Shown here: piece by piece, positions 4,390 to 36,175 of the stretch
Numbering within the stretch: position 1 is the stretch's first letter
Layout of the letters: the number at the start of each line of letters is the position of its first letter
IMG/VR virus record: IMGVR_UViG_3300020021_000012
Coordinates: 1-58,342 of that record
Source: a virus
Taxonomy: Duplodnaviria; Caudoviricetes
Reading direction: 5' to 3' (one strand)
DNA length: 58,342 bases
Translations under genes and position numbers: made by a program
The notes under the pieces: model-generated
Told to the model about the DNA's origin: nothing
The model's input: only the letters and a program-made list of their open reading frames with translations
Databases searched by the model: none

Positions 4390-5160
4390 TCATAAGTCCT
4401 GCTCTGCGATGTGGCAAAGGAAGTCGCACGACGGCTGTATCGGATCGTTGGTCGGCTGGTCGGCCGGTATCTCATCAATGAACCTGCGCTCGTCATTGAT
4501 CCGGCAAAGTCGGGCGCCGATTTCGCGGGAGTAGATCGCCGCCCGGTCAAACTCGATCGGGAAGTGCTTGCGGATCAGTGCCCAATAAGCTGGCGAGGTC
4601 GCCTTGACGCACGGGATACAATTGTTGTTTTCGAAGCCCAATTCGTACATCACCGGAACGGTGATGCCAGCGCGCTCGACCATGGCGATGCATGCCGCTT
4701 TGGTCAGCCCGCGATCGATCAGCGGGGTGCTGATCGTCAATTCGGGATAGGTGTCTCGGAGCAGTGCGGCTCGCGTCATGTCCCGGAGGTCGGCCGTGTA
4801 GCCGAAAACGTGGATGTCGGTCGGCCGCTGGAACTCAAGCCGGGGCTCGACCTTCAGCGCCACCGTACATTTTGCGCCGTTGATGCCGGCCATGTATCGA
4901 TGCTTTTCCCAGACGTGCCAAGTGTCGCGATATTTCGGATTGCGCAGGCGCGTAATCGGCCGCCCGAACCACGTCTCGCAATCGCCGAAGAATCGCAGAT
5001 TGTCGGGGTGCTCAGAGCCCGTCTCGCAATAGGTTGGCAATGCATGCGGACATAGCTTCGCCGCGACAGCGGAGGCCGCCCCGCAAGAGAACCAGGCTAT
5101 TGTTCGCGTCAACGCTCGTGCTCCCATTCGCCGCAACGAGAACAATATGCTCCGTCCCAC
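4390..5160 (-). CDS. PAPS-reductase-like (PP-loop) protein; true start probably ~5112
   Basis: WFSCGAASAVA PP-loop variant, EHPDNLRF, LGFENNNCIPCVKA Cys motif. Confidence 0.75.
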   Translation of the reverse strand: MGRSILFSLRRMGARALTRTIAWFSCGAASAVAAKLCPHALPTYCETGSEHPDNLRFFGDCETWFGRPITRLRNPKYRDTWHVWEKHRYMAGINGAKCTVALKVEPRLEFQRPTDIHVFGYTADLRDMTRAALLRDTYPELTISTPLIDRGLTKAACIAMVERAGITVPVMYELGFENNNCIPCVKATSPAYWALIRKHFPIEFDRAAIYSREIGARLCRINDERRFIDEIPADQPTNDPIQPSCDFLCHIAEQDL

Positions 5161-20707: not shown

Positions 20708-21031
20708 ATGCCTTTCAAGAAGGGCCAATCCGGCAATCCGGGTGGCAAATCCAAAGAACTGAAGGAAATTCAAGCGGCTGCGCGCGAGCATGCGCCGGCC
20801 GCATTGCGCACGCTGGCTCGGATCGCGACCAAGGGCAAAACCGAGGCCGCGCAGGTCCGAGCTGCCGAGGCGTTGCTCGATCGCGGGTTCGGTCGGCCAG
20901 CACAGGCCCACACTGGCGAAGACGGGGGGCCAATCCGATTCCTGCTCGAGGGAATGACCGACGATGAGCTTGCCCGTATCGCCGCAGGAGGCCGCTCGGG
21001 CGCTTCTGCAGCGCCGGACGGTTCGTCGTAG
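20708..21031 (+). CDS. terS: Terminase small subunit (DUF5681-like)
   Basis: FKKGQSGNPGG and LLDRGFGRP; overlaps terL. Confidence 0.85.
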   Translation: MPFKKGQSGNPGGKSKELKEIQAAAREHAPAALRTLARIATKGKTEAAQVRAAEALLDRGFGRPAQAHTGEDGGPIRFLLEGMTDDELARIAAGGRSGASAAPDGSS

Positions 21032-22436
21032 CCTGGCTGAATGGGGTCGGTTCAAGGGCTTTGAGCCCGCCCCCCATCATCAACTGATCTGCGACGAGAT
21101 CGAGGACTTCCTAGCCAGCGACGACGAGGTGCTGCTGCTGTTTGCGCCTCCGGGTTCCGCGAAGAGCACGTGGGTCTCGGTTCTGTTCCCGGCGTCCTAC
21201 TTGGCCCGGTTTCCGCAAAACAGCGTCTTGTTCGCAACGCACTCGGTCGAGTTCGCCAAGCGATGGGGCCGAAGGGTCCGCAACGATATCCTGCTTGAGC
21301 ACAGGATGCTTGGTATCAACGTCGCGCCGGACAACCAGGCGGCCGATCGCTGGGCCCTCACGACCGGTGGCGAATATTACGCGGTTGGCGCCGGAACCGG
21401 CATCGCGGGCTTTCGTGCTGACCTCGGGCTCGGGGATGACTTCTTCGGCAGCCGCGAGGATGCATTCAGCGAGATTGTCCGCCAAAGGCGATGGGACTGG
21501 TACGTCGACGACTTCAGCGCCCGTCTGAAGCCTGGCGCCAAGCGTATCCTCATGAACACTCGCTGGCACGAGGAGGACGTGGCTGGTCGAATCCTCCAGC
21601 AGATCGACAAGGGCATCATTCGCGGGCGGGTGATATCGATCCCAGCGATTGCTGAGGCTGGCGATCCGCTCGGCCGCAAGGTCGGCGAATATCTCTGGGA
21701 TGAGCCGAAAGGCTACAATTACGGGGAGTTCCTACGGGCTCGCCAGCGCGAAACCTCGCCGATGATGTGGTCCGCGCTGTATCAGCAGCGGCCGGCTCCC
21801 GAGGAAGGCGATTTCTTCAAAGCCGACTGGCTCAAGCCCTACGACAAGGCGCCTGCGCTCGAAACGCTCACGACCTACGGCGGCTCGGATTACGCCGTTA
21901 CCGCGGATGGTGGCGATTACACGGTTCACGGCGTTGTCGGGATCGACCCCGAAAACCGCATGTACCTGCTCGATCTATGGCGCCAGCAGGCCTCGTCCGA
22001 GAAGTGGATCGATGCGTTCTGCGATCTGGTCATCAAGTGGAAACCGCTGGGCTGGGCCGAAGAGCAGGGACAAATCAAGGCCAGCTTGGGGCCGTTTATC
22101 AACAACCAGCAGCATGAGCGCAAGGCCTACGTGGCCCGAACGACGTTCCCCACACGAGGCGACAAGGCCGTGCGGGCTCAATCGATCCGTGGCCGCATGG
22201 CGATCGAGGGGCTGTACGTGCCGATCCACGCGCCATGGTATCCCGCGCTGAGGTCGGAACTGCTGAGCTTCCCTGCCGGCAAGCACGACGACCAGGTCGA
22301 CATGCTGGGGTTGATCGGTCAACTGCTCGACATGATGACCGCCGGCCGCGCGCCGAAGAAGCCCGAGCCCGACACGAGTTCCGGCTACCGCTCCGTTGTC
22401 GATCGCGAGCGCGGGCCTTCGCTGGTGACGATTTGA
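20964..22436 (+). CDS. terL: Terminase large subunit
   Basis: PPGSAKS Walker A, GDD Walker B, TRWHEED, YQQRP, FPAGKHDDQVD nuclease motif. Confidence 0.95.
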   Translation: MSLPVSPQEAARALLQRRTVRRSLAEWGRFKGFEPAPHHQLICDEIEDFLASDDEVLLLFAPPGSAKSTWVSVLFPASYLARFPQNSVLFATHSVEFAKRWGRRVRNDILLEHRMLGINVAPDNQAADRWALTTGGEYYAVGAGTGIAGFRADLGLGDDFFGSREDAFSEIVRQRRWDWYVDDFSARLKPGAKRILMNTRWHEEDVAGRILQQIDKGIIRGRVISIPAIAEAGDPLGRKVGEYLWDEPKGYNYGEFLRARQRETSPMMWSALYQQRPAPEEGDFFKADWLKPYDKAPALETLTTYGGSDYAVTADGGDYTVHGVVGIDPENRMYLLDLWRQQASSEKWIDAFCDLVIKWKPLGWAEEQGQIKASLGPFINNQQHERKAYVARTTFPTRGDKAVRAQSIRGRMAIEGLYVPIHAPWYPALRSELLSFPAGKHDDQVDMLGLIGQLLDMMTAGRAPKKPEPDTSSGYRSVVDRERGPSLVTI

Positions 22437-22726: not shown

Positions 22727-22931
22727 ACGCAACTGGTCATCTCTCTATCGCCAGAGACCTCCACCGGATACCAGCAACTACGTGCTGCGGCGGCGCCCGT
22801 TCTTGCGGCGTTTGGTGTCCCACTATCGATGCTTTCGCTACGTAGGGCTCGGACCTATTGGGGCGTTGCGTGGGGCGTTCTGCTTGGCTCGCTGTGCTCG
22901 AGTGTCAGAGCCTCCATGCCACGATGAGTGA
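22719..22931 (+). CDS. Hypothetical basic protein
   Basis: Start re-called at MSERNW. Confidence 0.45.
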   Translation: MSERNWSSLYRQRPPPDTSNYVLRRRPFLRRLVSHYRCFRYVGLGPIGALRGAFCLARCARVSEPPCHDE

Positions 22932-22937
22932 GGCCGC

Positions 22938-23030
22938 ATGTTCATGATCGGCATCGCGATCGGCCTTGTTCTCGGTGTCCCAGCCGGCGTTGCGCTCGCG
23001 GTTTGGGCCGCGATACCCGAAACGCCATGA
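22938..23030 (+). CDS. Single-TM micropeptide (30 aa)
   Basis: MFMIGIAIGLVLGVPAGVALAVWAAIPETP; GAGG RBS; ATGA-coupled to the ligase. Confidence 0.5.
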   Translation: MFMIGIAIGLVLGVPAGVALAVWAAIPETP

Positions 23031-24118
23031 GTTCCGTCCTCGCCTTCCTCGTGCTCGCCGCCTATTGGCCCGGGATCGCAGGGCCTGCCACGACGCCACG
23101 CTGGGTCGCGCTGTTCACCTTCGTGCCGCTGCTGCTGTTCTTCGCCGATCGGGTGCGACTGACGCTCAGCCATGTCGCCGGGCTCGCCTTCATAGCCTGG
23201 TGTGCGGTGACGCTCGCATGGTCGGTGAGCCCGTTGGACGGCATCGGCGCGCTGGCCGAACTTGCCACTATCGGAGCCGTGTTCGCGCTGGGATCCCTGA
23301 GTGACGACCTGACCCCGCTCTATCGCGGTGCTGCGGTGGGGATCGGTGTATCGAGCGTCCTCGTCATCGGGCAATGGCTGCACCTGATCGACATTCCGGC
23401 GTTCTACCTGCCGGCCGCGCTGTTCGTGAACGCCAACCATATGGGCGAGGCTGCGGCGTTGATCCTGGTGGCCTGCATGTTCAACCGCATCTGGTGGGGC
23501 GTCATCGCATCTGCCCCTGCCTTGCTGCTCTCTGGCTCGCGTGCGGCGGTCCTGGCGGTTGTCATCGCCTGCCTCTATTGGCTGTGGGCGCATCGCCTGC
23601 GGGCGACCGCGGCGGTGTGCTGTGTGCTAGCCCTCTGGCTCGCCGTCGCGGCGTTCTTCATCGTCAAGCCCGACATGAACGGCCAGCACGAGCGGCTGGC
23701 GATCTGGTCGGATACGGCGCGCAATCTCACATTCACCGGGCAGGGCATCGGCTCGTATTGGGAGGCGTTCCCCGACATCGCTGTGGCGACCGACATCAGC
23801 CGTGTACGTCCCGATCATGCTCACAACGAGTTCCTCGACATTGCGTTCGAGACCGGGGCAGTGGGGTTCATGCTGTTCCTGGCATTTGTGGCCACGCTGC
23901 GCGGTCCATTCAATGTCGAGCGTGCCGTTCTGATCGCGCTCATGGTGGAGGCCTGCTTTGCTTTCCCATTTTCTAACGCATCCACCGCGTTTCTGGGAAG
24001 TGTTGCTGCGGGGGCTGCTGCTCGCTCTCGGCGTGACATTCGCAGTGAGGTTGTCGCTGGCCGAGATCGAATACGTGCGTGGCTGGCAGCCGGGAAAGCC
24101 GCTCAAACCGCAGTTTGA
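23027..24118 (+). CDS. O-antigen ligase / O-oligosaccharyltransferase family (Wzy_C) polytopic membrane protein
   Basis: About 10 TM segments; FVNANHMG, SGSRAA, ERLAIW, GQGIGSY, HAHNEFLDIAFETGAVG. Confidence 0.85.
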   Translation: MSSVLAFLVLAAYWPGIAGPATTPRWVALFTFVPLLLFFADRVRLTLSHVAGLAFIAWCAVTLAWSVSPLDGIGALAELATIGAVFALGSLSDDLTPLYRGAAVGIGVSSVLVIGQWLHLIDIPAFYLPAALFVNANHMGEAAALILVACMFNRIWWGVIASAPALLLSGSRAAVLAVVIACLYWLWAHRLRATAAVCCVLALWLAVAAFFIVKPDMNGQHERLAIWSDTARNLTFTGQGIGSYWEAFPDIAVATDISRVRPDHAHNEFLDIAFETGAVGFMLFLAFVATLRGPFNVERAVLIALMVEACFAFPFSNASTAFLGSVAAGAAARSRRDIRSEVVAGRDRIRAWLAAGKAAQTAV

Positions 24119-24216: not shown

Positions 24217-24438
24217 GTGGCCAATTCCTCCCCGTCCCCCAACAACGTCCCCGTCAAATTCCGCGGCAAAGGAGAGCGTGAAATGCCCAAGCCCCCGAAC
24301 ATGGATGTATCGACCGTCGCAGGTCCGAAGGGCGGCAAGCCCAAGTTCCCGCGCGGCCTGAAGAAGAAGGCCAAGCGGCTGCAGGGCCAAGGCCGCATCT
24401 CCGACAAGGCGATGAAGAAGATCACGGGTGAGGCGTGA
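24217..24438 (+). CDS. Small Lys/Pro-rich basic protein
   Basis: 73 aa, GAGAGG RBS; C-terminal motif shared with the ATP-grasp protein. Confidence 0.7.
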   Translation: MANSSPSPNNVPVKFRGKGEREMPKPPNMDVSTVAGPKGGKPKFPRGLKKKAKRLQGQGRISDKAMKKITGEA

Positions 24439-24444
24439 GAGTAG

Positions 24445-24870
24445 ATGCCAGCCCGTTGCCGGCCAGCGCACGACAAGCACTACCATCTGCGCGAGCCATT
24501 CGGCTATCTCCTGACCCTCGATCTCTACGGCTGCAGGCCGTGCGTCTGTGACGACCTGAACCTCTGCTACGATTTCCTCGTTGATCTGGTGCGCGATCTC
24601 GGGATGACAGCGCAGGGCCCGCCGCACATTTACCGCAGCCCGCCTGAATTCCCCGACAAGGCCGGTCTGTCAGGCTGGATCGGCATGATTGAGAGCGGCA
24701 TTCAGATTCACACGCTCACGCCGAGGAGCTTCATCTCGATCGACATCTATTGCTGCCGGGACTTCACGTCGGATGGAGTGACCGAGTTCGTGCGGGACTA
24801 TTTCGGCGGTTGCCGGGAAATCGAGATGAACCGGATTCTGCGCGGCATGAAATACAACGAGGTTGTGTGA
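24445..24870 (+). CDS. Pyruvoyl-dependent S-adenosylmethionine decarboxylase family proenzyme (SpeD/SpeH-like)
   Basis: LTLDLYGC, GLSG...IES cleavage site, IHT, IDIYCC; ESG replaces the usual ESH. Confidence 0.82.
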   Translation: MPARCRPAHDKHYHLREPFGYLLTLDLYGCRPCVCDDLNLCYDFLVDLVRDLGMTAQGPPHIYRSPPEFPDKAGLSGWIGMIESGIQIHTLTPRSFISIDIYCCRDFTSDGVTEFVRDYFGGCREIEMNRILRGMKYNEVV

Positions 24871-26208
24871 ATGCCATCGCATCGCGACCGCACGGTGCTG
24901 ATCTATGATCATGGGCTCTTCGTTGAGCTTGCCGTCACGCTCTCAAAGCACTTCGGCCGCGTGTTGCTGTACGTCCCCTGGGAGAACGGATATCCGAGGA
25001 GTAACGCCCCGCGCATCGGCCAGGGCATCAAGGGCGTCGAGCGCGTGCTGTCGCCGTGGGATCATTACGACGAGATCGACCTGTGGATATTTCCCGATGT
25101 GTATGAGGGCGCGCTGCAGCAGCATCTCGTCGACATGGGCAAGCGGGTCTGGGGCTGCCGGATGGGCGAGGAGCTGGAACTCGACCGCGTCAAGTCCAAG
25201 GAGCACTGTAAGGCGATTGGCATCGACATCGGCCCTTACGCGCACATCGTCGGCCTCGATGCGTTGCGCGAGCATCTGAAAGACAACGACGATCAGTGGG
25301 TGAAGATATCCGCCACCCGTGGCGACATGGAGACCTTCCACGCCCCGAACTACGCTCAGGTCGAGCAGCAGATCGACGAGCTGGAGCACAATCTCGGCGC
25401 CAAGAAAAAGGTGATGGAGTTCATCGTCGAGGAGGGCATCGATCCCGCCATCGAGATCGGCTACGACGGCTATACCATCGACGGCCGATATCCCAAGGGA
25501 GCCATCGTCGGGGTCGAGGTCAAGGACAAGGCCTACGTCTGCAAGACCATGCGCTATTCGCAATTGCCGGAGAAGGTCCGCAGCGTCAACGACAAGCTGG
25601 CCAAGACGCTGAAGGGCTACGGCTACCGTGGCTTCATCTCGACGGAGATCAGGTGCAAGGGCGATAAGGCCTACCTGATCGACCCATGCGCGAGGTGCGG
25701 ATCGCCGCCCTCCGAACTCTATCAGGTGATGATCACCAACCTTGCCGACGTGATCTGGGAAGGTGCCGGCGGCGTCGTAGTGGAGCCTGAATTCTCCCAC
25801 GAATGGGGCGCACAGATCCTGCTGCTGTCGGATTGGGCGGACAGCAACTGGCAGCAGGTGTCGTTCCCTGAATCCATCAGAGAGAACGTCAAGCTGCGCA
25901 ACATGACGATCATTGATGGAAACTATTACGTCATTCCGCAATGGACCGGCATGCCTGAGATTGGCGCCATCGTTGCGACCGGCGACACGCAGGAAGAGGC
26001 CATCAACGAGGTCAAGCGGTTGGCCGAGATGGTGCACGGCCACGACATGAACAAGCCGGTCGAGGCGCTGGAGAAGGCGCGCGACGACCTCAATGAGGCG
26101 CTGGGCACAGCAAAGCCGAAGTCCAAGCTTCAGGTTGAGGCTGAGCGGCTGCGAAGTGAGGGGAAGATTTCGGATCGACGGTTTGACCGGATGGTGAGGG
26201 CGGAATGA
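24871..26208 (+). CDS. ATP-grasp ligase, PurD (GAR synthetase)-like
   Basis: ELELDRVKSK, WVK, FIVEEGI..IEIGYDG, GYRGFISTE, IDPCARCGSP (compare PurD EFNARFGDP). Confidence 0.75.
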   Translation: MPSHRDRTVLIYDHGLFVELAVTLSKHFGRVLLYVPWENGYPRSNAPRIGQGIKGVERVLSPWDHYDEIDLWIFPDVYEGALQQHLVDMGKRVWGCRMGEELELDRVKSKEHCKAIGIDIGPYAHIVGLDALREHLKDNDDQWVKISATRGDMETFHAPNYAQVEQQIDELEHNLGAKKKVMEFIVEEGIDPAIEIGYDGYTIDGRYPKGAIVGVEVKDKAYVCKTMRYSQLPEKVRSVNDKLAKTLKGYGYRGFISTEIRCKGDKAYLIDPCARCGSPPSELYQVMITNLADVIWEGAGGVVVEPEFSHEWGAQILLLSDWADSNWQQVSFPESIRENVKLRNMTIIDGNYYVIPQWTGMPEIGAIVATGDTQEEAINEVKRLAEMVHGHDMNKPVEALEKARDDLNEALGTAKPKSKLQVEAERLRSEGKISDRRFDRMVRAE

Positions 26209-26378
26209 TGTCCATCCCGAAAGACGGAACCTACGTGGTTTTGCACCCCGCACAAATCAGCAACTTCGATTTGGTGTGCGCGTTCAAGGCTAACTATCCG
26301 CACACCGAGATCATCGTGTCGCAGAAACTACCTACAGGAAACGAAAGGACCCAGCCATGTACTTCAAGGAAGACGTAG
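26205..26378 (+). CDS. Hypothetical protein (57 aa)
   Basis: Manually translated MMSIPKDGTYVVLH...; ATGA-coupled. Confidence 0.45.
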   Translation: MMSIPKDGTYVVLHPAQISNFDLVCAFKANYPHTEIIVSQKLPTGNERTQPCTSRKT

Positions 26379-26794
26379 CGCGCCTCGTCAGCGAACTCGG
26401 CAACGTGAAGATGGAACCGCCCGTCGAGTTGGGTAAGGCCGACGACTTCGGTCTGTCGCTCGACCTGTTCGACCCCGTGTCTGGCCAGATCATCGCCCTG
26501 GCGCGGCCGGCGCGGATCGACCTCGGCCAGCCGCAAATCTTGCTGACCGCAACTCAGGCCCGCACTGCGGTTGCCGCTGCCCGCACCGGGCATCTGCATC
26601 GCGTTCGTGGCATGGGCTTCGCCTCGATCGAGGAATTCAACGAGGCGCACAAGCGCGACGTGGCGGCGGCCGATCTGAAGGCCAAGCAGGCTGAGGAGTC
26701 GGCCAAGATGAACCAGGCCCACGCCGACGCGGCGAACAAGGCTGCGGCCGATGCGCAGCCTAAGAAGCCGGCGCAGGCTGAGGCAGTCGCGTAA
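26357..26794 (+). CDS. Hypothetical protein, Ala-rich C-terminus
   Basis: 145 aa, AAGGA RBS, strong codon bias. Confidence 0.75.
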   Translation: MYFKEDVARLVSELGNVKMEPPVELGKADDFGLSLDLFDPVSGQIIALARPARIDLGQPQILLTATQARTAVAAARTGHLHRVRGMGFASIEEFNEAHKRDVAAADLKAKQAEESAKMNQAHADAANKAAADAQPKKPAQAEAVA

Positions 26795-26802
26795 GTAACA
26801 GC

Positions 26803-28803
26803 ATGCCCCAACCCGTCCTCGCAGCCATGGAAGCCCGGCCCCGCGGCATCTCGCCCGCGGTGTCGGGTCGCGTCCGTGATCCCGAGGATCGGCGATCGCG
26901 CAACGTCGAGGACGATGAGGACGAGAACTACCTCTCTGTCCGCGAACTGCGGAACCAGTTCGAGGATTACCTGACCTCCAAGGTCGACGAGATCGAGGAG
27001 CAGAAGGATTCGCGTCGTTATTACCATGGCTCGCAGTTAACGTCCGACCAACTCCGCGTGTTGCGTGCCCGCCATCAGCCGCCGATGACCTGGAACCGTA
27101 CCGGCCGCAAGATCAACGGCATCGTTGGGTTGGTGCAGCGGATGCGCTCGGACCCGAAGGCTGAGGCGACCAGCCCCAAGAGCGAGCAGGGTGCTGAGAT
27201 CGCCACGCAGTCGGTGCGCTCGGTGCTCTCCGCCAGCGACTGGAAGTCCTTGGAGCCGTGGTGCCTGCTGCAATGCGGCATTGATGGAATTGCCGGGGTG
27301 CAGTCGGTGCTCCAGAAGGATGCCCGCGGCGATTACAAGATCAGGCTCGAATGGGTCATTGGAGACGAGTATTTCTACGACCCGAAGTCCTACCGGCAGG
27401 ATTTCACCGACAGCCGCTACGAGGGCACATCCAAGTGGATGGACGTCGACGAGGCCATAGAGCTTTGGCCCGACGACGAGGAGAAAGAGGAGCAACTCCG
27501 CAGCCTGTTCGCCGGCGACACCGACATGACCACGAACCCGGACCGGGAAATCAAGTGGATCATCACGTCGAGCAAGCGCATCCGGTTGGTGCAGCACTGG
27601 TACAAGAAAAAGGGCAAATGGCGGTGGGCGTTCTACGTCGCCAACACCCTGATCGACCAGGGCACCTCGCCGTTCTTCGATGAGGACGGCAACAGCGCCT
27701 CGTCATTCGATATGTTCGCCGCTGCGGTGGATCATGACGGCGACCGCTACAGCTTCGTACGAAATCTGAAAGGCCCGCAGGACGCCCTGAACCAGGGCAA
27801 GTCCAAGATGCTGCATCTGGCCAATACCAAGCTGGTGCGCTCCGAGAAGGGTGCGGTCGATGATGTCGAGACGGCGCGGCGCGAGGTGGCGCGGCCGGAC
27901 GGCTGGGTCGAAACCAACCCGGGCCGGGTATTCGAGCTCGTCGACACCAAAATGGACCTCGCCGCCTTCACCCAGTTCACCGAGGATGCCAAGGCCGAGC
28001 TCGACGCCTACGCCAACAGCAATCTGGCCTCGCTCAACGGCACCGCGATCACGCAGATTTCCGGGCGGGCGATCGAACTGCTGCGGCAGCCTGGCATGGC
28101 CGAACTTGGCCCGTTTATCCTGGCTCAAAGGGCATGGAAGCTCCGGGTGTTCCGCAAGATTTGGAACGCGGTCAGCCGCTACTGGACCAAGGAGCGGTGG
28201 ATCAGGGTCAACAGCGACGATGCCAAGCTGGCCCAATGGCTGCAGGTCAATGGCCTCGGCCTCGATCAGTACGGCCTGCCGGCGATCATCAACGCGGTCG
28301 GGGCGCTCGACGTCAATATTGTGCTTGAGGAAGGCCGCGACGTCGCCTCCGTGATGGAAGACATCCAGGACCAGTTCAAGGGCTATCCGCCGGGCACCTT
28401 CCCGCCGCAGGTCTTGGTCGAGTTCTCGACCCTGCCGCGGTCGGAGAAGGACAAGTTCATGCAGATGATGGCGCCGAAGCCGCCTCAGCAGGACCCGGCA
28501 GCCGAGCTTATGAAGAAGCTCCAGCTCGAGGGCTTGGCCGGCGAGGTCGCTCACACGGCCGCGAAGACCGCCAAGGACACCGCGTCGGTCCAGCAGATTC
28601 TGGCCACCGCCGAAGAGAAGCGCGCCAAGGCCGCCACCGAGAGCATCAGGCCTGCCCACATGGCGCACGGTGCGGAGATCGATGCCGCAACCTTCGCCCG
28701 AGATACGCTCGCCCAGGCCCATCAGATCGCCACGGCGGGGCAGCAGCAGCCACAGCAAGCCTCACCGCAGAAACCGCCGGCACAGTTCCCGCTGCCGTTC
28801 TGA
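26803..28803 (+). CDS. Portal protein (P22-like)
   Basis: 666 aa; RRYYHGSQ...N, YDP.S..DF.DSRY, NKGKS-like NQGKSK, SGRAI; C-terminal coiled coil. Confidence 0.88.
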   Translation: MPQPVLAAMEARPRGISPAVSGRVRDPEDRRSRNVEDDEDENYLSVRELRNQFEDYLTSKVDEIEEQKDSRRYYHGSQLTSDQLRVLRARHQPPMTWNRTGRKINGIVGLVQRMRSDPKAEATSPKSEQGAEIATQSVRSVLSASDWKSLEPWCLLQCGIDGIAGVQSVLQKDARGDYKIRLEWVIGDEYFYDPKSYRQDFTDSRYEGTSKWMDVDEAIELWPDDEEKEEQLRSLFAGDTDMTTNPDREIKWIITSSKRIRLVQHWYKKKGKWRWAFYVANTLIDQGTSPFFDEDGNSASSFDMFAAAVDHDGDRYSFVRNLKGPQDALNQGKSKMLHLANTKLVRSEKGAVDDVETARREVARPDGWVETNPGRVFELVDTKMDLAAFTQFTEDAKAELDAYANSNLASLNGTAITQISGRAIELLRQPGMAELGPFILAQRAWKLRVFRKIWNAVSRYWTKERWIRVNSDDAKLAQWLQVNGLGLDQYGLPAIINAVGALDVNIVLEEGRDVASVMEDIQDQFKGYPPGTFPPQVLVEFSTLPRSEKDKFMQMMAPKPPQQDPAAELMKKLQLEGLAGEVAHTAAKTAKDTASVQQILATAEEKRAKAATESIRPAHMAHGAEIDAATFARDTLAQAHQIATAGQQQPQQASPQKPPAQFPLPF

Positions 28804-28815
28804 GGACATCAACCA

Positions 28816-28938
28816 ATGTGGAAGATTCTGGGGTGGATAGCCCTCGGAATAGCGATTGGCTTTGCGATCGACGATGCGGCGCTTCACGTCGCTGGAACGT
28901 CATTCACTCAGCTTGCCGCGCAGATGAAGGGGTCATGA
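28816..28938 (+). CDS. Single-TM micropeptide (40 aa)
   Basis: MWKILGWIALGIAIGFAIDD...; GAGGA RBS; ATGA-coupled. Confidence 0.55.
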   Translation: MWKILGWIALGIAIGFAIDDAALHVAGTSFTQLAAQMKGS

Positions 28939-29420
28939 CCATGAGCAGATTCCCTGAATCGAACTACGACCGCAAGCGGCGGATGACGACGCGGTTTGCG
29001 CTGGCGGTATGCGGCGCAGCGCTGCTGGGGTTCATCGCCATTGCGGTGGCAAGCTCGGGAGCGAAGGCGCAGTCGATACCGTCAAAATATCTAAGCACGG
29101 CATCGACCAATTCGACATTGGTAAAGGTGTCAGAAGCACACCTGTCGATCATCGTCGCAGTCAATACCACGACGACGGTCTATTACCTCAAGTTCTACAA
29201 CAAGGCCGTTGCGCCGACATGCAACACGGACCCCGTCCTGTTTATGGTTCCGATCCCGTTTGGCGCGAGCAATGCGGGCGGTGGCGCGGTCATCCCGATC
29301 GCCGATCCGGGCGGCTTGTATTTTCAGCAAGGTCTCGGCTTCTGCATCACCAGCGGCAGCGCCGATAGCGACAACGGAAATGCGGCGACCGGCGTGACCG
29401 TGAGCCTGGGCGTCAAATGA
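28935..29420 (+). CDS. Signal-peptide-bearing beta-rich virion-type protein
   Basis: Basic n-region, hydrophobic h-region, AKA|Q; 2 mature Cys. Confidence 0.75.
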   Translation: MTMSRFPESNYDRKRRMTTRFALAVCGAALLGFIAIAVASSGAKAQSIPSKYLSTASTNSTLVKVSEAHLSIIVAVNTTTTVYYLKFYNKAVAPTCNTDPVLFMVPIPFGASNAGGGAVIPIADPGGLYFQQGLGFCITSGSADSDNGNAATGVTVSLGVK

Positions 29421-29614
29421 TCCGGGTCGTCATCGTAGCGCTGGCGATGTGCGCGATGTTCGCACTGAGCGCCAGCGCACAGTTGCCGATGATGGGCTAC
29501 GGGCCGGGGAACTTTGCGGGCTCAGGCGGGGGCGGTAGCGCCTGTGCTGCCGGACAGCTCGATTTCTCCGATCCCACAGGATGCAACCTCACGCTCTACA
29601 TGGTGGGATTATGA
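29417..29614 (+). CDS. Small secreted protein
   Basis: MIRVVIVALAMCAMFALSASA|Q; 2 mature Cys. Confidence 0.7.
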   Translation: MIRVVIVALAMCAMFALSASAQLPMMGYGPGNFAGSGGGGSACAAGQLDFSDPTGCNLTLYMVGL

Positions 29615-29871
29615 GATTCAAATTCTGGTGGAGCATCTTCGTCTGCCTATCGGCAGTGCCGGCACAGGCCGCCGAGCGGGCCCTGATGTTCGACGACAAC
29701 GACGTCAAGGTGCTGACGCAGATCCTCGACGCTGCGACCCGCTCGGGTGGCATCCAGATCGCCCCGGCGACGGTCTACATCCTGGACAAGCTCAACAAGG
29801 CGCCGGTCGTGACCGAACGCAAGGACGCTGATCCCGCTGCCGCCGAGAAGCCGAAGGAGCCCGGGCAATGA
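29611..29871 (+). CDS. Small secreted protein
   Basis: MRFKFWWSIFVCLSAVPAQA|A; ATGA-coupled on both sides. Confidence 0.7.
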   Translation: MRFKFWWSIFVCLSAVPAQAAERALMFDDNDVKVLTQILDAATRSGGIQIAPATVYILDKLNKAPVVTERKDADPAAAEKPKEPGQ

Positions 29872-30815
29872 AGATGCTTCGATCCGTTGCAGTCGGGCTT
29901 GCGCTCTCCTGGTTGATGTCGGGCTGGGCCTTTGCCGGCACCAGCACGATCACCACCAAGGATGCATCCGGAACGACTAAGACGTTCGATGTCATCACCG
30001 ATGGCTCCGGCAACTTCGGGGCGATGATCGGAGTCTGTGACGGGACGGCGCTGGCGCAATGTGCGGCGGTCAAGGCCGCGAGCACGGCGGCGGTAGCGAC
30101 TGATCCATCATTGGTGGTCAGGATTAATCCCGGCGATGCGGTAGCGACCGGTATCGCCACGATCGCCACCAACAGCGCGGCGCCGAGCCCGTGCCTCGCG
30201 GCGACTGCCTTCAACACCAACTCCTACTCCAATGCGGCAACCGCCCCGTCGAATTGCGACCTGAACGGCGGCTTCTACGTCCATCCGCCAGCGAACCAAA
30301 CCGTCAACGTGACGCAGGTCGGCGGCGCGACGCTAGCTCTCGGCCAGACGACGATGTCGGCCGGAATTCCGGTGGCTTTAGCCAGCAACCAATCCTCAAT
30401 TCCGGTCGCGGCGACGCTGAGCGCGGAGACGACGAAGGTCATCGGGACGGTCAACGAATCGAGCCAATATCCCGCCGGTGCAACGGCGATCACGGCCTCG
30501 GCGACCGGAACCACGGGCGCGACGACCGCGACACTCGCGGGAACATCGGGAAAAACGACGTACATCTGCAGCTATTCGATCCGCGCCAATGCGACAGCTG
30601 CGACGACGGTCACCAACACCGTCACTGGAGTGATCACGGCAACCTTGAGCCATATCATGTGGGTGGCTCCTGCTGCCTCTGGCGTCGGCCTCGATGAGCA
30701 GATTTTTTCGCCCTGCGTTCCAGCCAGCGCAACCAATACCGGAATCGCGGTCGTATCCGGCGCCCCTGGAACGGGCGGAAATGTGAGCTCTACTGCGACG
30801 GGCTACCAACTGTGA
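29868..30815 (+). CDS. Secreted Thr/Ala/Ser-rich fibre-like protein
   Basis: MKMLRSVAVGLALSWLMSGWAFA|G; 6 Cys in three near pairs. Confidence 0.8.
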   Translation: MKMLRSVAVGLALSWLMSGWAFAGTSTITTKDASGTTKTFDVITDGSGNFGAMIGVCDGTALAQCAAVKAASTAAVATDPSLVVRINPGDAVATGIATIATNSAAPSPCLAATAFNTNSYSNAATAPSNCDLNGGFYVHPPANQTVNVTQVGGATLALGQTTMSAGIPVALASNQSSIPVAATLSAETTKVIGTVNESSQYPAGATAITASATGTTGATTATLAGTSGKTTYICSYSIRANATAATTVTNTVTGVITATLSHIMWVAPAASGVGLDEQIFSPCVPASATNTGIAVVSGAPGTGGNVSSTATGYQL

Positions 30816-31729
30816 GACCCTTCGCCCGCTGGCTCTTTGCTCTAGCCGCGATACTCTGCGTCTTCTCGACAGGGGCGAAGCCGTATTGGCAATCGCGGCT
30901 GCAGGTCAGTATCGCCAGTTCGGTTGGATGTTCTCAGGCAACCACATTTCTGGCTCGCACATCTGGGTTGGATGCTACTCATCAAAGTGCCTATACAACG
31001 TTCATTTGCAACTTGGTTGCCCAGGGCGTCTGGGCGAAGATGGATATCGTTTATGTCTTCGCGACTGCGGACACAACAACTGCTGGGCTTAATCTCGTTT
31101 CCACGTCATTCACCGGCGCGACTGCAGGCTCCCCGACATTTACTGCCGATGCGGGATATACTGGAGTAAACGCCTCCACAACGGTTTTTTTCAATAGCAC
31201 ATTTAACCCAACGACAGCGACGACTCCGCAATTCACTCAGAATTCATCTCACGTTTCAGCGTGGAGCAATACAAACGCAGCGGCGGTTTCAAACGGCGGC
31301 GTGGTAGTCGGACTTGGATCAGGCGCAGGACTTGCTGCACCTAATACCAGCCTATTCCCAAAATTCAACGACGGGAAGGCATATTATCGTATTAACGACG
31401 GCTCAAGCTCCGCCGGTGTGACAAATGCAAATTCGACTGGCCATTATTTGGCCAACAGATCGGGCGCCTCTACGCAGCAGGGGTACAAAAATGCCGTAGA
31501 TCAAGGCGTTGTGTCTCAGACATCAGGCACCCCGGCCAATGGGCCCATGTATATTTTAGCTGTTGATGATGTCATAACTGGAGTCCCAAACCCCGCGTTT
31601 GGTGCCGGGTATCAGGTCATGATGGCAACAATTGGCGGTAGCTTGTCTGCCGGAGACGTTACAAATCTGTGTCATGAGACAAATACCTATTTGAACACAA
31701 TAGGTGGCATATCTTCTGGGATATGCTAG
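30812..31729 (+). CDS. Secreted protein, putative lectin/beta-sandwich virion accessory
   Basis: N-terminal signal peptide; GVWAKMDIVYVFA motif; 4 mature Cys; visibly more AT-rich. Confidence 0.7.
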   Translation: MRPFARWLFALAAILCVFSTGAKPYWQSRLQVSIASSVGCSQATTFLARTSGLDATHQSAYTTFICNLVAQGVWAKMDIVYVFATADTTTAGLNLVSTSFTGATAGSPTFTADAGYTGVNASTTVFFNSTFNPTTATTPQFTQNSSHVSAWSNTNAAAVSNGGVVVGLGSGAGLAAPNTSLFPKFNDGKAYYRINDGSSSAGVTNANSTGHYLANRSGASTQQGYKNAVDQGVVSQTSGTPANGPMYILAVDDVITGVPNPAFGAGYQVMMATIGGSLSAGDVTNLCHETNTYLNTIGGISSGIC

Positions 31730-34700
31730 ATGTCTCTATGTCGTAGAGAGTTTTTAGCGTCCGTAGCTGCAATCACGCTCATTGGTTCGACAGCGGCACT
31801 TGCGCGCTTCCCGCACGGCGATCCAAACACATCTCCGCCGACAGTGCCGTTCTTCGTCGAAGTGACGATGACGGCACCGGACATAATTCGGCTGGAGATA
31901 CGCGATCCGATCATCCAGCGCGGGCTCTTCCAGCAGCTCGGGACGCCTGACGCCGCTGCCGCTGGCAGTTGGACGACACGGACACACCCCATCACGGGGG
32001 CAAGCACAGCGTGCTTCATCGGTGGTTTTAACCAGAACTTCGCACGCTTCACCGACGTGCTGTTTCCGAACTACTACAATCGTGCTGCTGGTGATGTCGC
32101 CGCCGACTGGTCGATTACGGGCGGCCTCACAGTCACGAATGTCTACCGGTTCTCGTGGCCCTACTGTGAGGGCATCGTTAATACTGGCGGCCAAACGACC
32201 GCGAACCAGACGACATTCCGGCATTACATCTGGCTCAAGGTTAGTTCTGCCCTGGTCTCTGGAACGAACTACGTCATCACGCCGCCGGCCGGCGTGTCGC
32301 TTGTACCCATCTCGTTCCCATTCAACGATAAGGTCACTCGGGCGTCGAGCATCGTTGCGAACCAGGTCGGCATCTCGCAAACCGATGACCTCAAGCTCGC
32401 ATACCTGACAGAGTTTATCCCAGGTCTCGGCCCCGTCAATTTTGCATCGACCTACGGCATCAGCAGCTTCAACATCCTCGATAGCGCTGGGAATGTCGCC
32501 TACAACACTGGGACCTTCGCGCAGCGGGTAACGCCTTCGACGACCGAGACCAGCGGCGGCGCGATCCGCTACTACATAGACACGACTGTTGCGCCGAAGA
32601 AGTTCGACCAGATCACGAATGCAAGCCCAGGAGTCATAAGGTCTATTGCTCACGGGTATTCCGGCGGAGAGATTATCTTCATTGTCGGCGCTGGCATCTC
32701 CGGGGGAGGGATAGTCAGCAACCCATCGCTTTGCGATACTCCGCTGACGGTCGTTCTCGTCGATGCCGATCACTTTTCTCTGACGGGGACGATTGCAACA
32801 AATAGTCCTGTCGGCAGCGCGATCAATACGCCGTCGATGACAACCTATGTTCCGGGAACGTTCATCGCGACTGGAAACTCATTCAATTCGGGCTATGACA
32901 GCCTGATCTACTCTGCCTATCCCTCCAACCGCGCCGGAACCTACGTCTACGGCCTCGACGCGAGCACTGCTACTGGACTAGCGGACGGCAGCTACTGCTA
33001 CCAAATTCCAGGGCTTGGCATCTCTGACTATTTCCCCGTGAACGCCAACGCATGGCTATCGGCCGCGACGACATGGGCGCAGGGCTATTACCATCAAACG
33101 TCCGGGATCGCGATTGACGGTCGGTTTGGCTATGCTCGTGGTCCAGCTCAAGTTGACGGCTTCGACGGGACGCAGCTTTTCCTTAGTCTATTGCCGATGG
33201 GTTTCACGTCTGAAGACGGCGGCTACAATGGCGGGAATGCCCTGGATCAGGGGCTATCTGGACTTGCTCCCTTCCTAACGGCAACGCGCGGTCCTGCTGG
33301 TTTGTTTGGCACCTTCCATGATGCCGGTGACTGGTGCTCGGTTCTTTACTACCACGCCGACGCGCCATGGGGTCTGCTCGATAGTGGCTACGAGTACATC
33401 CCGACAGCCGGCCATGCCACCAATTTCAATTTTCCGAAGATGTCGCAGACGTGGGGCCAGACCTACGCAGGGACCGACAGCCTGTCCGATGTCATTCACA
33501 TGGCGGTCTACTTCGCCGAGTTCTACCGGCTCGCCCAGAACGCATTCGGTGCGGTGCCCTCTGGAACGTCATTTGGGCAGTCCGGTTTCGGCGATGGCGG
33601 CGCGACTGAAACCGCGCCAAGCCCGGCGAACTATAAGGTGTGGGTGCTGAACGCCCCGGATCATCCGTCGACATATCTCTTTGCTGTCGTTGCCGCGAAG
33701 CTCGCGGTTGTGTTTTGGAATTTGGGGTTCACGACGCTCGGTAATCTGTGGGCGACCTCAGCCGAGAGTGCGTGGACCTGGGCGGAAGGTGTCTACACCG
33801 GCCTTCAGTCCGATACAAATTTCTACTACAACACGACCACTTATAACGGCGTCGCGCTTGGTCTTCAGGCCAACGCCAGTTGGTCTGGGGCGCAGTATTT
33901 GACGGCGCTCGGGACTTTCAGTGCCGGCACACCTTTGTCCTCAACTGGCATGATGAAATTTGGTGCGCAGCAGAGGTTCAATGCTGCGGGTGCATTGTTC
34001 CGAATGGCTGGCGTCGTTGGCCGTTCACAAGTAGCTTATGATGCGGTGGTGCATGCGTTCGGCGTTACCGGACTCCAGAACTCTTCCTGCACGCTTGGTA
34101 CTTGGGAGTACAGCCACGGTGCAGGATTCGACGCTGCGCTCTATGCCAGTGCGAACGGTAACAATATTTTCATCAACCCCATGAACACCGCCTCGACGGC
34201 GTCAGAGGCTACGAATGCCTACCGCACCTACAATGGCGGCATCGGTACGGGCGTTAATATCGATCAGGCGATTCACGGATACGTTCTCAGCAGCGCAAGC
34301 CCGACGAACCAAGCGCGTCTGCGCCGTCAGCTTCAGGGGCAACTGAGCGTCACGCTCGGCGCCAATCCGACCGGGCTCTGCTACTCCAGCAACTCAGGGA
34401 AACGCAGCACGCTCGGTATCCTGCATCGCGACTGGCAAGGGATGGGAAGCGGGTGCCCGCAGCCGACCGGATATACCGGCTATACCTGGGCTGGGACTAC
34501 ATATGCATTCGGCGTCTTCAACTTCAGTTCGGACTCGCCGCAAAACTTCACGGTGGAAAACCCGACCGGACTGTTTTCATCGACATTTGGCGTCAACCGC
34601 ATCGTCTACCCGCACAAATGCGCTGTTCCGATGTGGCGAGCGGTCCCGGAGGTCAGCTACTGCGTTCAGTTCATGGAGGGCACGACATGGCAGACGATCG

Positions 34701-34747
34701 TGCCTAACCTGCTGGCGGCGATGTGGCTGAATTACTGGAATAAGTGA
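31730..34747 (+). CDS. Tat-signal GH9 (cellulase-like) glycoside hydrolase with Ig-like and E1-FCCH-like domains
   Basis: CRREFL Tat motif; NQVG, YYHQTSG, FHDAGDW, LGANP...Y, LHR, C-terminal EGTTWQT; ITNASPGV...HG insert. Confidence 0.75.
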   Translation: MSLCRREFLASVAAITLIGSTAALARFPHGDPNTSPPTVPFFVEVTMTAPDIIRLEIRDPIIQRGLFQQLGTPDAAAAGSWTTRTHPITGASTACFIGGFNQNFARFTDVLFPNYYNRAAGDVAADWSITGGLTVTNVYRFSWPYCEGIVNTGGQTTANQTTFRHYIWLKVSSALVSGTNYVITPPAGVSLVPISFPFNDKVTRASSIVANQVGISQTDDLKLAYLTEFIPGLGPVNFASTYGISSFNILDSAGNVAYNTGTFAQRVTPSTTETSGGAIRYYIDTTVAPKKFDQITNASPGVIRSIAHGYSGGEIIFIVGAGISGGGIVSNPSLCDTPLTVVLVDADHFSLTGTIATNSPVGSAINTPSMTTYVPGTFIATGNSFNSGYDSLIYSAYPSNRAGTYVYGLDASTATGLADGSYCYQIPGLGISDYFPVNANAWLSAATTWAQGYYHQTSGIAIDGRFGYARGPAQVDGFDGTQLFLSLLPMGFTSEDGGYNGGNALDQGLSGLAPFLTATRGPAGLFGTFHDAGDWCSVLYYHADAPWGLLDSGYEYIPTAGHATNFNFPKMSQTWGQTYAGTDSLSDVIHMAVYFAEFYRLAQNAFGAVPSGTSFGQSGFGDGGATETAPSPANYKVWVLNAPDHPSTYLFAVVAAKLAVVFWNLGFTTLGNLWATSAESAWTWAEGVYTGLQSDTNFYYNTTTYNGVALGLQANASWSGAQYLTALGTFSAGTPLSSTGMMKFGAQQRFNAAGALFRMAGVVGRSQVAYDAVVHAFGVTGLQNSSCTLGTWEYSHGAGFDAALYASANGNNIFINPMNTASTASEATNAYRTYNGGIGTGVNIDQAIHGYVLSSASPTNQARLRRQLQGQLSVTLGANPTGLCYSSNSGKRSTLGILHRDWQGMGSGCPQPTGYTGYTWAGTTYAFGVFNFSSDSPQNFTVENPTGLFSSTFGVNRIVYPHKCAVPMWRAVPEVSYCVQFMEGTTWQTIVPNLLAAMWLNYWNK

Positions 34748-34804: not shown

Positions 34805-34945
34805 GCAGCCACGATACGGCCGCGCGGGTTCTCAAGGTCCCCGCTCCACAATGACCCGCCGCAGGCGACCGCGATACGGCGCAGCGTCCAATCCCGGCCC
34901 CGACGCACCATCAGGCGGGCTGCCGTCCTCACGACGATACCGTGA
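34805..34945 (+). repeat. Three hairpins sharing loop RCGATAC at ~60-nt spacing in the scaffold leader
   Basis: Loops at 34811, 34871 and 34934 on different, self-complementary stems. Confidence 0.75.
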
Positions 34946-34967
34946 ACACTGAAAGGTTTGCCAAATC

Positions 34968-36074: not shown

Positions 36075-36175
36075 TCTACCCGCAATCTTGAACGGCTGTT
36101 CTCGCGTGCGCTCGATGTGAGCGGACGCGATCATGCGCGATTTCGGCGCCGGCGATCCTAGGAAAGATCACGGCA

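Follow-up and report, generated by a model that had tools for sequence, protein, structure and literature searches.

The SpeD-type decarboxylase and the PurD-fold ATP-grasp ligase encoded side by side among the head genes of this phage may constitute one two-step small-molecule pathway, co-expressed with the genes for the head and for packaging, a reading to which we give a probability of about 45%. The first-pass annotation had proposed that the decarboxylase makes an amine and that the ligase attaches it, and this gains support from the linkage of the two genes, seen at 53 of the 89 distinct loci compared in phages, and from a separate pair of the same kind in Patescibacteria.

Genomic setting of the module

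The window, i.e., the whole stretch of 58,342 bp analysed here, has a CheckV completeness of 100% and comes from a complete, 58-kb temperate phage. The module (24217–26208) was found to consist of three + strand ORFs of 73, 141 and 445 aa at the positions previously reported. It is flanked by genes for the terminase large subunit (20964–22436, + strand; PHROG 38, E 1.2e-88) and a P22-type portal protein (26803–28803, + strand; Pfam P22_portal, E 2.3e-74), and the decarboxylase and ligase genes abut each other between these two, as had been described. A 145-aa protein encoded between the ligase and the portal (26357–26794, + strand; cluster 36) is conserved in 8 loci, including the window, and had no match in Pfam, PHROG or NCBIfam.

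The stop codon of the decarboxylase gene touches the start codon of the ligase gene (TGAATG), and a scan revealed no terminator-like site on the + strand within 24217–26208. The genes of the module are therefore predicted to be translationally coupled, which we count in favor of a shared pathway. Neither a spermidine synthase (PF01564) nor purM was found in the 58,342-bp record, in agreement with the earlier statement that no spermidine synthase or other pur gene is recognisable in the genome. The phage also encodes TGT/DpdA-like and PAPS-reductase-like proteins, about 20 kb away and beside the integrase; the 49 larger ORFs scanned included none recognisable as encoding a hydroxymethylase, a DNA kinase or any other hypermodification enzyme.

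The SpeD-family decarboxylase

The 141-aa protein (24445–24870, + strand), a SpeD-family pyruvoyl decarboxylase proenzyme hereafter referred to as type A, belongs to the AdoMet_dc superfamily (Pfam PF02675; E 6.4e-14, 52.6 bits, cut-off 25) and matches PHROG 3125, 'S-adenosylmethionine decarboxylase', so the original family assignment stands. Its cleavage motif is I-E83-S84-G85, with cleavage predicted between E83 and S84 and with H89 and C104 at the presumptive catalytic positions. The Thermotoga maritima enzyme, as described in PMC10407285, has a Glu-Ser processing site with S63, H68 (Ser+5) and C83 (Ser+20); the 141-aa protein likewise has a Glu-Ser site, and its Ser+5 and Ser+20 positions are occupied by His and Cys, respectively. 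In an alignment of 17 SpeD sequences, S84 and C104 were invariant and E83 and H89 nearly so. The ESG sequence had been considered atypical, but G85 was nearly invariant in the 17 aligned type-A members, cellular proteins included, and ESG is the norm of a SpeD subfamily common to phage, Patescibacteria and Omnitrophota.

With the NCBIfam AdoMetDC equivalog model (TIGR03330), the 141-aa protein scored 38.2 bits, below the cut-off of 75.65, whereas the true SpeD of locus L102, taken as a reference, reached 129.8 bits. Decarboxylated S-adenosylmethionine (dcSAM) is therefore the least likely of the three amines (dcSAM, agmatine and putrescine) previously put forward as products, and putrescine is the one favored by the subfamily. 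The 141-aa protein is 56–65% identical to Patescibacteria and Omnitrophota proteins, and a subfamily common to these groups fits the published ornithine decarboxylase clade SpeDC. Residues Q87, T90, F96 and Y102 are present, with Q87, T90 and Y102 conserved; SpeDC has four diagnostic residues of these types (Gln, Thr, Phe and Tyr) in its central region, at positions defined only in Figure 8 of PMC10407285. The conversion of ornithine to putrescine would be the most likely reaction, an assignment made by subfamily and derived from taxonomic spread. In a quick tree, the seven phage type-A rows formed a single clade (SH-aLRT 97) nested within a 23-row Patescibacteria group containing all the linked loci.

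A second subfamily, type B, is restricted to phages and has an Asp residue at the position of T. maritima His68. The processing or chemistry of type B may therefore differ, and this counts against the two-step pathway.

The PurD-fold ligase

The 445-aa protein (24871–26208, + strand) had no match in Pfam, PHROG or NCBIfam, and belongs to an almost purely viral family of 1235 clusters at 50% identity that no model of these three databases covers. The earlier description of it as a PurD-like ATP-grasp protein was borne out by profile and model comparison. The family profile found PurD alone in the PDB (2yw2, E 2.2e-9), and the AlphaFold2 model (pLDDT 94.7) gave 2yw2_A as the top Foldseek match (E 2.1e-20, TMq 0.70). 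PurD accounted for 11 of the first 12 rows listed, and the first 49 PDB ranks were occupied by PurD, biotin carboxylase, PurT and PurK. The ligase has the four-domain fold of PurD (TMq 0.60–0.70 to the PurD structures listed), with an identity to these structures of 12–17%. Protein or peptide ligases of the RimK, TTL or graspetide type were not among these closest matches; TTL and RimK types gave only weak matches in BFVD (TMq 0.33 or less), a database in which no close structural relative was found (best TMq 0.47).

E103, R106, R150, E154, E195, D199, E216, K218, R275 and N290 were invariant in 36 diverse members of the family, and K145, E187 and D271 nearly so. The fold and the conserved Lys, Glu and Arg residues in the putative nucleotide/acyl-phosphate site, with roles assigned by analogy, place the protein in the ATP-grasp superfamily. 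Inteins are inserted at three conserved motifs of the ligase (in P0123, P0141, P0157 and P0255) and, together with the invariant charged residues, make it look like an active enzyme. N-terminal HAD-phosphatase fusions (P0174, with a Pfam match; P0180, weak and below the cut-off) and an acylphosphatase fusion (P0209) occur in the family; they hint at phosphorylated substrates, and this counts against the two-step pathway, as does the replacement of the Mg-ligand Asn of PurD with Cys or Thr.

One role considered for such a protein was that of a plain GAR synthetase boosting host purine synthesis. PurD provides the best fold and the sole significant PDB sequence match, but no match was obtained with NCBIfam purD (TIGR00877, E 0.01 or below) or with the Pfam GARS_N/A/C models (E 0.1 or below), and the ligase therefore does not appear to be a plain PurD. 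The low identity, the change of the GDPE motif to GSPP (R-x-G-S-P-P for R-F-G-D-P-E), the Cys in place of the Mg-ligand Asn, and the lack of another pur gene or of any purine-pathway context in the phage also argue against this role, which we regard as highly improbable.

Linkage in phages and in Patescibacteria

Searches for related loci were seeded with ligase alignment A1, P0125 and alignment A6. They yielded 94 distinct ligase loci, 89 of which had at least 700 nt upstream and were used as the denominator. A SpeD-like gene accompanied the ligase in 53 of these 89 loci (8 of type A and 45 of type B), and in 40 of the 53 it abutted the ligase gene, with stop and start codons touching or overlapping. 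The occupation of the same slot by two SpeD subfamilies suggests that the presence of a decarboxylase there is under selection. No SpeD-like gene was detectable in the other 36 loci, and in two Aquificae viruses the proteins encoded upstream of the ligase are not SpeD-like, with no Pfam match and no ES motif. The ligase is therefore not strictly dependent on a phage-encoded decarboxylase. One partner family (X) had no match in PDB, Pfam or PHROG. From Bradyrhizobium-type phages to Aquificae viruses, the ligase gene keeps its position in the head module, and in very distant viruses it still lies beside the portal.

The pair also occurs in cells, such that co-occurrence elsewhere, proposed as a check on the original annotation, was found both in phages and in bacteria. 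In five Patescibacteria loci (L099, L100, L107, L108 and L111), an EamA transporter gene precedes a type-A SpeD gene, which is followed by a gene for a 437-aa PurD-like ATP-grasp protein. The phage-ligase profile gave scores of 62–75 bits with these five ligases, whereas the highest-scoring true PurD reached 39.5 bits, and hhalign related the two sets with a probability of 98%. Their identity is only about 21%, however, which counts against the two-step pathway. Searches for purM in the five genomes containing the pair yielded no match (controls, 14/14), and there was no above-cut-off match to purD. In L105, L106 and L110, an LPG_synthase_C/DUF2156 gene adjoins the type-A SpeD gene and no ATP-grasp gene was found. 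Proteins of the LPG_synthase_C/DUF2156 type are aminoacyl-tRNA-dependent transferases, which provide another route to an aminoacyl bond. The transporter and the transferase in the place of the ligase point to a small-molecule product rather than to the acceptors proposed in the first-pass annotation (Asp/Glu or C-termini of a head protein, a peptide or a nucleotide). In L102, a bona fide SpeD is encoded beside the type-A gene. The pair is thus present in numerous uncultured phages as well as in Patescibacteria, the cells of which are tiny.

Small proteins, a shared tail and a capsid-like N-terminus

The first ORF of the module encodes a 73-aa basic protein (24217–24438, + strand; GTG start; cluster 5); members of its family are encoded ahead of the decarboxylase gene at 43 related loci. 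Residues M1, N10, F15, E22, G59 and S62 are invariant in the family alignment, and the protein had no match in Pfam, PHROG or NCBIfam. Its N-terminal stretch of about 23 residues (24217–24285, + strand) resembles the N-terminus of the major capsid protein (36176–36247, + strand; PHROG 334, Pfam Phage_capsid_3). The motif [NT]N[KRAVT]x[VI]x[FYW] near a Met was found in 43 plus-strand ORFs versus one minus-strand ORF, and among the proteins matched are those of the capsid in the window, L072/L073 and L080. A recent DNA duplication was considered as the source of this likeness and rejected, as the DNA similarity is weak.

A six-frame motif scan placed the tail G-R-I-S-D-K-A-M-K-K-I of the small protein at 24391–24423 (+ strand), four residues short of the stop codon. 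The ligase has a corresponding G-K-I-S-D motif (26161–26193), also four residues before its stop codon, within a C-terminal helical hairpin (residues 419–444; 26125–26202, + strand) with helices at 419–429 and 435–444 in the model. G431 and S434 of the ligase were invariant in 29 homologues. The tail G-x-[IV]-S-x-K is thus carried by the ligase, the upstream small protein and one downstream small protein. Of 77 loci, 42 had it on neighbours of the ligase and 29 on the ligase itself, and there was no match in 3099 minus-strand ORFs. A single capsid-gene neighbourhood therefore encodes several proteins that end in the same peptide but are otherwise unrelated. The acidic residue following the tail Ser is not invariant, more distant members of the ligase family have other tails, and the scaffolding protein (34968–36074) lacks the motif. 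Complex prediction with ligase residues 1–415 and the small protein gave a score of 0.00 against a mark of 0.32, the fold of the partner being uncertain, a result that weighs on neither side of the binding question. The tail common to the ligase and its small neighbours, and the copying of the coat N-terminus by a small protein, are new here.

Retention in the head module and a tail on small structural-module proteins are unexpected of a plain metabolic enzyme, and this counts against the two-step pathway. A further idea is that the G-K-I-S hairpin serves as an address peptide bringing the ligase and the two small proteins, one of them with the coat-like N-arm, to the same site in the assembling head. 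At the procapsid or within it, the ligase would then either produce a polycationic amide on the spot or amidate internal proteins at their acidic residues while the DNA enters, and the capsid would be loaded with enzyme by a logic like that of encapsulins. We consider this idea improbable.

Proposed pathway and alternative explanations

In the two-step pathway, the SpeD proenzyme would cleave itself at E83/S84, generating the pyruvoyl group, and would then decarboxylate a basic amino acid; ornithine, giving putrescine, would be the likeliest from the subfamily. The ligase would activate a small carboxylate, perhaps an amino acid such as glycine by analogy with PurD, as an acyl phosphate, and would join it to the new amine, yielding an N-acyl (aminoacyl) diamine. 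As for the use of this product, a packaging polycation derivative and a modifier of the host polyamine pool are both guesses.

Alternatively, the ligase may modify head proteins, linking either the product of the decarboxylase or a polyamine from the host to carboxylates of head-module proteins, for instance the small proteins with the tail or the coat N-arm, with the shared C-terminal tail as a docking or address element. The constant position of the ligase in the head module, the distribution of the tail on the ligase and its neighbours (including its absence from minus-strand ORFs and the invariance of G431 and S434), the capsid-like N-terminus of the small protein and the loci without a decarboxylase are all consistent with such a role. 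However, the closest matches by fold and by profile (PurD, biotin carboxylase, PurT and PurK) are all small-molecule enzymes, with RimK, TTL and graspetide ligases not near the top; the cellular pair adjoins a transporter rather than structural genes; and the variable acidic residue after the tail Ser and the other tails of distant members also speak against it. Modification of head proteins therefore seems rather unlikely to us.

The substrate of PurD is phosphoribosylamine, and the ligase may similarly act on a phosphorylated sugar or nucleotide amine, the module feeding nucleotide or DNA modification. The extension of the PurD fold over all four domains, the HAD-phosphatase (P0174; weak in P0180) and acylphosphatase (P0209) fusions and the TGT/DpdA-like and PAPS-reductase-like proteins of the phage would be in keeping with this, but the latter genes lie far from the module, no hypermodification gene was seen among the ORFs scanned, no purM was matched in the Patescibacteria genomes that carry the related pair and the partner is an amino-acid-type decarboxylase; we therefore find a nucleotide-amine substrate hard to credit. 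We would also be surprised if the module were a chance neighbourhood of two unrelated auxiliary genes in one late operon, a polyamine-boosting decarboxylase and an ATP-grasp protein with a separate role. Lone phage SpeD homologues acting as AdoMetDC, ADC or ODC are documented (PMC9992855), and 36 of the 89 ligase loci lack a detectable SpeD-like gene, but the overlapping or touching codons in 40 loci, the second, phage-restricted SpeD subfamily in the same slot and the recurrence of the pair in cells are difficult to reconcile with independent roles.

Comparison with known systems

SpeDC and SpeDA are class 1b AdoMetDC homologues that have become pyruvoyl ornithine and arginine decarboxylases, according to PMC9992855 and PMC10407285 (Li et al. 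2023). The 141-aa protein shares with them its Pfam family, the Ser, His and Cys residues at the positions of T. maritima S63, H68 and C83 and a score below the AdoMetDC equivalog cut-off, and its subfamily occurs across the candidate phyla radiation, Omnitrophota and DPANN, the distribution reported for SpeDC. However, the published clusters pair these enzymes with speE, hss, speY or casdh/casdc rather than with a PurD-like ligase in a phage head module, and the activity proposed here is a prediction. The word 'grasp' is absent from the main text of both papers.

The ligase resembles PurD in its four-domain fold, in a profile match spanning the start of the B domain and the A and C domains, and in the retained catalytic Arg (R275), but it differs in its failure with the purD and GARS models, its altered motif and Mg-ligand position, its additional C-terminal helical hairpin and its setting outside any purine context. 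The HsvB and HsvC enzymes of phevamine biosynthesis are ATP-grasp enzymes joining amino acids to a polyamine (PMC6187163). The amide chemistry proposed here, in which the carboxylate of an amino acid would be linked to a polyamine-type amine, with a neighbouring amine-tailoring gene, is likened to theirs by chemistry alone; the HsvB and HsvC genes are bacterial virulence genes with an amidinotransferase partner, unlike the decarboxylase-linked gene of a phage head module.

Encapsulin cargo proteins have loading peptides, and the P22 scaffolding protein ends in a coat-binding helix-turn-helix. Several proteins of the capsid-gene neighbourhood similarly end alike, in what is predicted to be a basic helical hairpin, but the phage's own scaffolding protein is not one of them. 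Packaging of the ligase into particles is pure conjecture.

A literature search combining SpeD or AdoMetDC with ATP-grasp or GAR synthetase in phage revealed nothing that looked related, by title and abstract, among the matches listed, and a search for a pyruvoyl enzyme with ATP-grasp and polyamine found nothing. The mentions of ATP-grasp in PMC6256558, PMC10580990 and PMC3890496 were set aside as citations of Iyer et al. 2009 or as referring to a different, 291-aa gene, which adjoins amidoligase and glutamine amidotransferase genes. The ligase gene goes unmentioned in the main text of Palmer et al. 2020, which deals with Aquificae viruses.

Significance

Phage SpeD homologues are currently taken to be stand-alone polyamine boosters. 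At the loci examined here, a SpeD-type decarboxylase is linked to most representatives of a large ligase family that is nearly confined to viruses, and with more than a thousand protein clusters lacking a family model, this family is a target for function discovery. The module defines a testable two-enzyme route to an amine conjugate, with a related pairing in Patescibacteria. Should the shared tail prove to be an address, enzymes would be brought to phage capsids in a new way, and a product in the form of a modified polyamine, synthesised during packaging, would bear on the old question of how phage DNA charge is neutralised in the head.

Organization of the module in the phage genome

The 58,342-bp window, a whole IMG/VR record with a CheckV completeness of 100%, corresponds to a temperate phage that encodes an integrase, repressors and a P22-type portal along with a replication module. 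On the plus strand, a small-terminase-like gene (20708-21031), the terminase large subunit gene (20964-22436) and the gene for a multi-pass Wzy_C membrane protein of 396 aa (22928-24118) precede those for a 73-aa basic protein (24217-24438), a 141-aa SpeD-family protein (24445-24870) and a 445-aa ATP-grasp protein (24871-26208), followed by genes for a 145-aa protein (26357-26794) and the portal (26803-28803). The stop of the small gene lies 6 nt from the start of the SpeD gene, the SpeD stop and the ligase start are in contact (TGAATG), and no terminator-like sites were found on this strand within 24217-26208. Neither a spermidine synthase nor purM was found in the 58,342-bp genome. The gene order, the TGAATG coupling and the lack of these two genes therefore confirm the first-pass annotation, which had placed the module between terminase and portal in a genome without spermidine synthase.

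The gene between terminase and module is probably a moron for lysogenic conversion, and its product has a domain of the Wzy_C O-antigen ligase/polymerase type (E 7e-14); a copy 35% identical is found at the same place in a related locus (L002), and in another, L010, this slot is filled by a RimJ/RimL-like GNAT acetyltransferase gene (3417-3953, on the same contig as L003 4417-4953; Acetyltransf_3, E 6e-18). About 6 kb of genes (28818-34747, plus strand), encoding Thr/Ala-rich, secreted- or fibre-looking proteins and one 1005-aa protein among others, separate the portal from the scaffolding gene (34968-36074, plus strand), which has an acidic coiled-coil product; the longer antisense ORF that overlaps this gene (34929-36134) is spurious. 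Beside the integrase, a minus-strand region (3504-4187, 4390-5160 and 5202-6194) encodes a TGT/DpdA-like protein (PHROG 887, queuine tRNA-ribosyltransferase) and a PAPS-reductase-like protein (PHROG 424), neither of which had a match in NCBIfam; these genes may form a 7-deazaguanine-type DNA modification set.

The SpeD-family decarboxylase

The 141-aa protein scored above the Pfam AdoMet_dc threshold and, at 38.2 bits, below the cut-off (75.65) of the NCBIfam AdoMetDC equivalog. Its processing site is Glu83-Ser84, and a His and a Cys stand 5 and 20 residues after this Ser, positions equivalent to those of the Thermotoga maritima enzyme, in which, according to PMC10407285, the corresponding Ser, His and Cys serve self-processing and catalysis. 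The ESG at the cleavage site had been considered atypical, a view that is not upheld: the motif ES-G-I-Q-I-H-T is present in all the ~130-aa relatives, 56-65% identical, from Patescibacteria, Omnitrophota, Planctomycetales-labelled MAGs and Woesearchaeota. This subfamily (type A) would fit SpeDC, the published pyruvoyl ornithine decarboxylase clade, in its taxonomic spread, in its tandem arrangement with a true SpeD (in locus L102, a bona fide SpeD with an equivalog score of 129.8 against the cut-off of 75.65 lies immediately 5' of the type-A gene) and in conserved Gln, Thr, Phe and Tyr residues, candidate counterparts of the diagnostic ones of that clade. We infer from these features that the 141-aa protein may be a SpeDC-type ornithine decarboxylase.

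The PurD-like ligase

The 445-aa ligase had no match in Pfam, PHROG or NCBIfam. We identified 656 relatives in a 90% clustered collection (7997 candidates scored). At 50% identity the family comprises 1235 representative clusters, of which 737 reach E 1e-30 or better. Many relatives are carried by 50-60 kb contigs, one (P0110) is held by Bradyrhizobium sp. YR681, and the only matches in 50,697 phage records were two uncultivated Aquificae viruses. Neighbouring clusters are 96-100% viral according to ESM Atlas labels, and the most distant among the matches listed is 67% viral. The suggested resemblance to PurD was borne out, since PurD alone was found in a PDB profile search with the family (E 2.2e-9) and GAR synthetases were the first structure matches of the AlphaFold2 model (pLDDT 94.7, pTM 0.88), followed by biotin carboxylase, PurT and PurK; the best BFVD match had a TMq of 0.47, with no close structure. 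Charged residues are invariant across 36 diverse members, and the E-x-N and G-D-P-E motifs of PurD are replaced with D-x-C and G-S-P-P.

Some homologues of ~780 aa (P0123, P0141, P0157 and P0255 among them) are interrupted by LAGLIDADG-type inteins, whose insertion points, close to query residues 150, 220 and 274-283, all coincide with invariant motifs. N-terminal extensions of ~120-130 aa occur in P0139, P0174, P0180, P0202 and P0235, with a HAD-phosphatase-like Pfam match in P0174 and a weak one in P0180, and P0209 has an N-terminal acylphosphatase domain fused to the ligase.

Linkage in phages and in cells

Pooling 154 IMG/VR loci yielded 94 distinct ligases, 89 with at least 700 nt upstream. 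A SpeD-like gene was present at 53 of these 89 loci (abutting the ligase in 40), type A in 8 and a second subfamily, type B, in 45; a further partner family, X, was present in 21 (10 without SpeD), and 26 had neither. The profiles derive from the loci that they were used to count, which makes the counts lower bounds. In type B the motif is I-T-E-S-F-L-A-L-D-T-W-P-D, and Asp takes the place of His68; its Pfam AdoMet_dc matches range from weak to passing, and its relatives lie almost exclusively on phage-sized contigs. Ser and Cys are retained (L010 4612-5001, L026 4482-4856 and 43 more loci), and type B may have a different self-processing or other chemistry. Partner X (115-150 aa; L088 6245-6631, L089 4284-4628, L091 4275-4634, L094 2218-2643 and 17 more loci) has invariant H48, E52, D70, G86, P92, Y93 and H97, the motifs H-E-x-x-E and E-P-G-D-x-x-A-P-Y-x-x-x-H, candidate metal ligands, and no Pfam, PHROG or PDB match. 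The 550-aa homologue P0165 has an X-like C-terminal part, perhaps through a frameshifted assembly. The ligase of the two Aquificae viruses, too, lies directly 3' of the portal, and an unrelated protein of 134-144 aa precedes it.

The cellular scan covered the nearest neighbours in 30 of 45 full-length type-A SpeD loci (80 loci fetched). Five Patescibacteria loci combine an EamA transporter, type-A SpeD, a 437-aa PurD-like ATP-grasp gene (GARS_A, E 1e-12 to 1e-16; purD model, 109-122 bits, below the cut-off of 288) and a histidine-kinase-like gene. The phage-ligase profile gave these cellular ligases 62-75 bits versus 39.5 for the best PurD, and hhalign of phage against cellular ligase gave a probability of 98%. 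In these five genomes, whose completeness is not stated, purM was found in 0/5 (controls 14/14) and purD had no match above cut-off. In three further loci type-A SpeD adjoins an LPG_synthase_C/DUF2156 gene, and no ATP-grasp gene was found there; Omnitrophota loci showed no conserved context. In a quick tree of type A (87 rows, 134 columns), the seven phage rows formed a single clade (SH-aLRT 97) nested in a 23-row Patescibacteria group (SH-aLRT 83) that contains all linked loci and is separate from a 60-row Omnitrophota group. We interpret the combination of decarboxylase, carboxylate-amine ligase (or an aminoacyl-transfer enzyme instead) and exporter as a putative pathway that makes an N-aminoacyl amine for export.

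A common tail and a coat-like N-terminus

The ligase and the 73-aa protein have a common C-terminal motif, G-[KR]-I-S-D-[KR]-x-[FM]-x-[KR]-[IM], 4 residues before the stop, which in the ligase model falls within a confident helix-turn-helix (residues 419-444), with G431 and S434 invariant in 29 homologues. In related loci the tail is found on the upstream small protein (43 loci) and on a downstream one (36 loci) that is absent from the window. Of 77 loci, 42 have it on one neighbour or more and 29 on the ligase, whereas none of 3099 minus-strand ORFs contains it, nor does the scaffolding protein (34968-36074); below ~52% identity (L054 onward) it is lost from ligase and neighbours, bar a few neighbour matches. 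The N-terminus of the upstream protein resembles the capsid protein N-terminus of the same phage (M-A-x-[ST]-...-N-N-K-x-V-x-[FY]-R-...-R-E; 43 plus-strand matches, including four capsid proteins, versus one minus-strand), with at most a weak likeness at the DNA level. Some tail-bearing small proteins (L018 3814-4425, L019 736-1497, L036, L037 and L051) have, in addition, a segment that resembles DUF6496 (M-P-L-K-K-G-x-S ... K-Q-A-V-A-I-A) or DUF3008 (S-x-A-Q-N-x-x-M-H-A-A-A).

A putative two-step pathway

We consider it rather probable that the decarboxylase and ligase are coupled. The SpeD-family enzyme would convert a basic amino acid to a diamine, which the ligase would convert to an N-acyl diamine, the two steps being expressed together with the head genes; this is the best-supported reading as a whole, with a tentative probability of about 0.45. 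Polyamines act as counter-ions in phage heads, and homospermidine is abundant in Bradyrhizobium. The main rival, in which the module modifies a protein or is targeted to the head, is favoured by the constant head-module position and by the tail common to ligase and small proteins; the PurD-type fold of the ligase and the transporter context in cells argue against it. We rank lower a role directed at nucleotides, separate functions for the two enzymes and a ligase that is plain PurD.

ATP-grasp partners are unmentioned in the main texts of the two Michael-lab papers on phage and prokaryotic SpeD homologues (PMC9992855, PMC10407285), and our targeted search of the open-access literature found no relevant paper on the pairing. 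New here are the subfamily assignment of the SpeD protein, the second SpeD type and partner X. Also new are a Patescibacteria counterpart that includes a transporter and in which a transferase can stand in for the ligase, the negative results with the purD and AdoMetDC models, the common tail and the coat N-terminus mimic.
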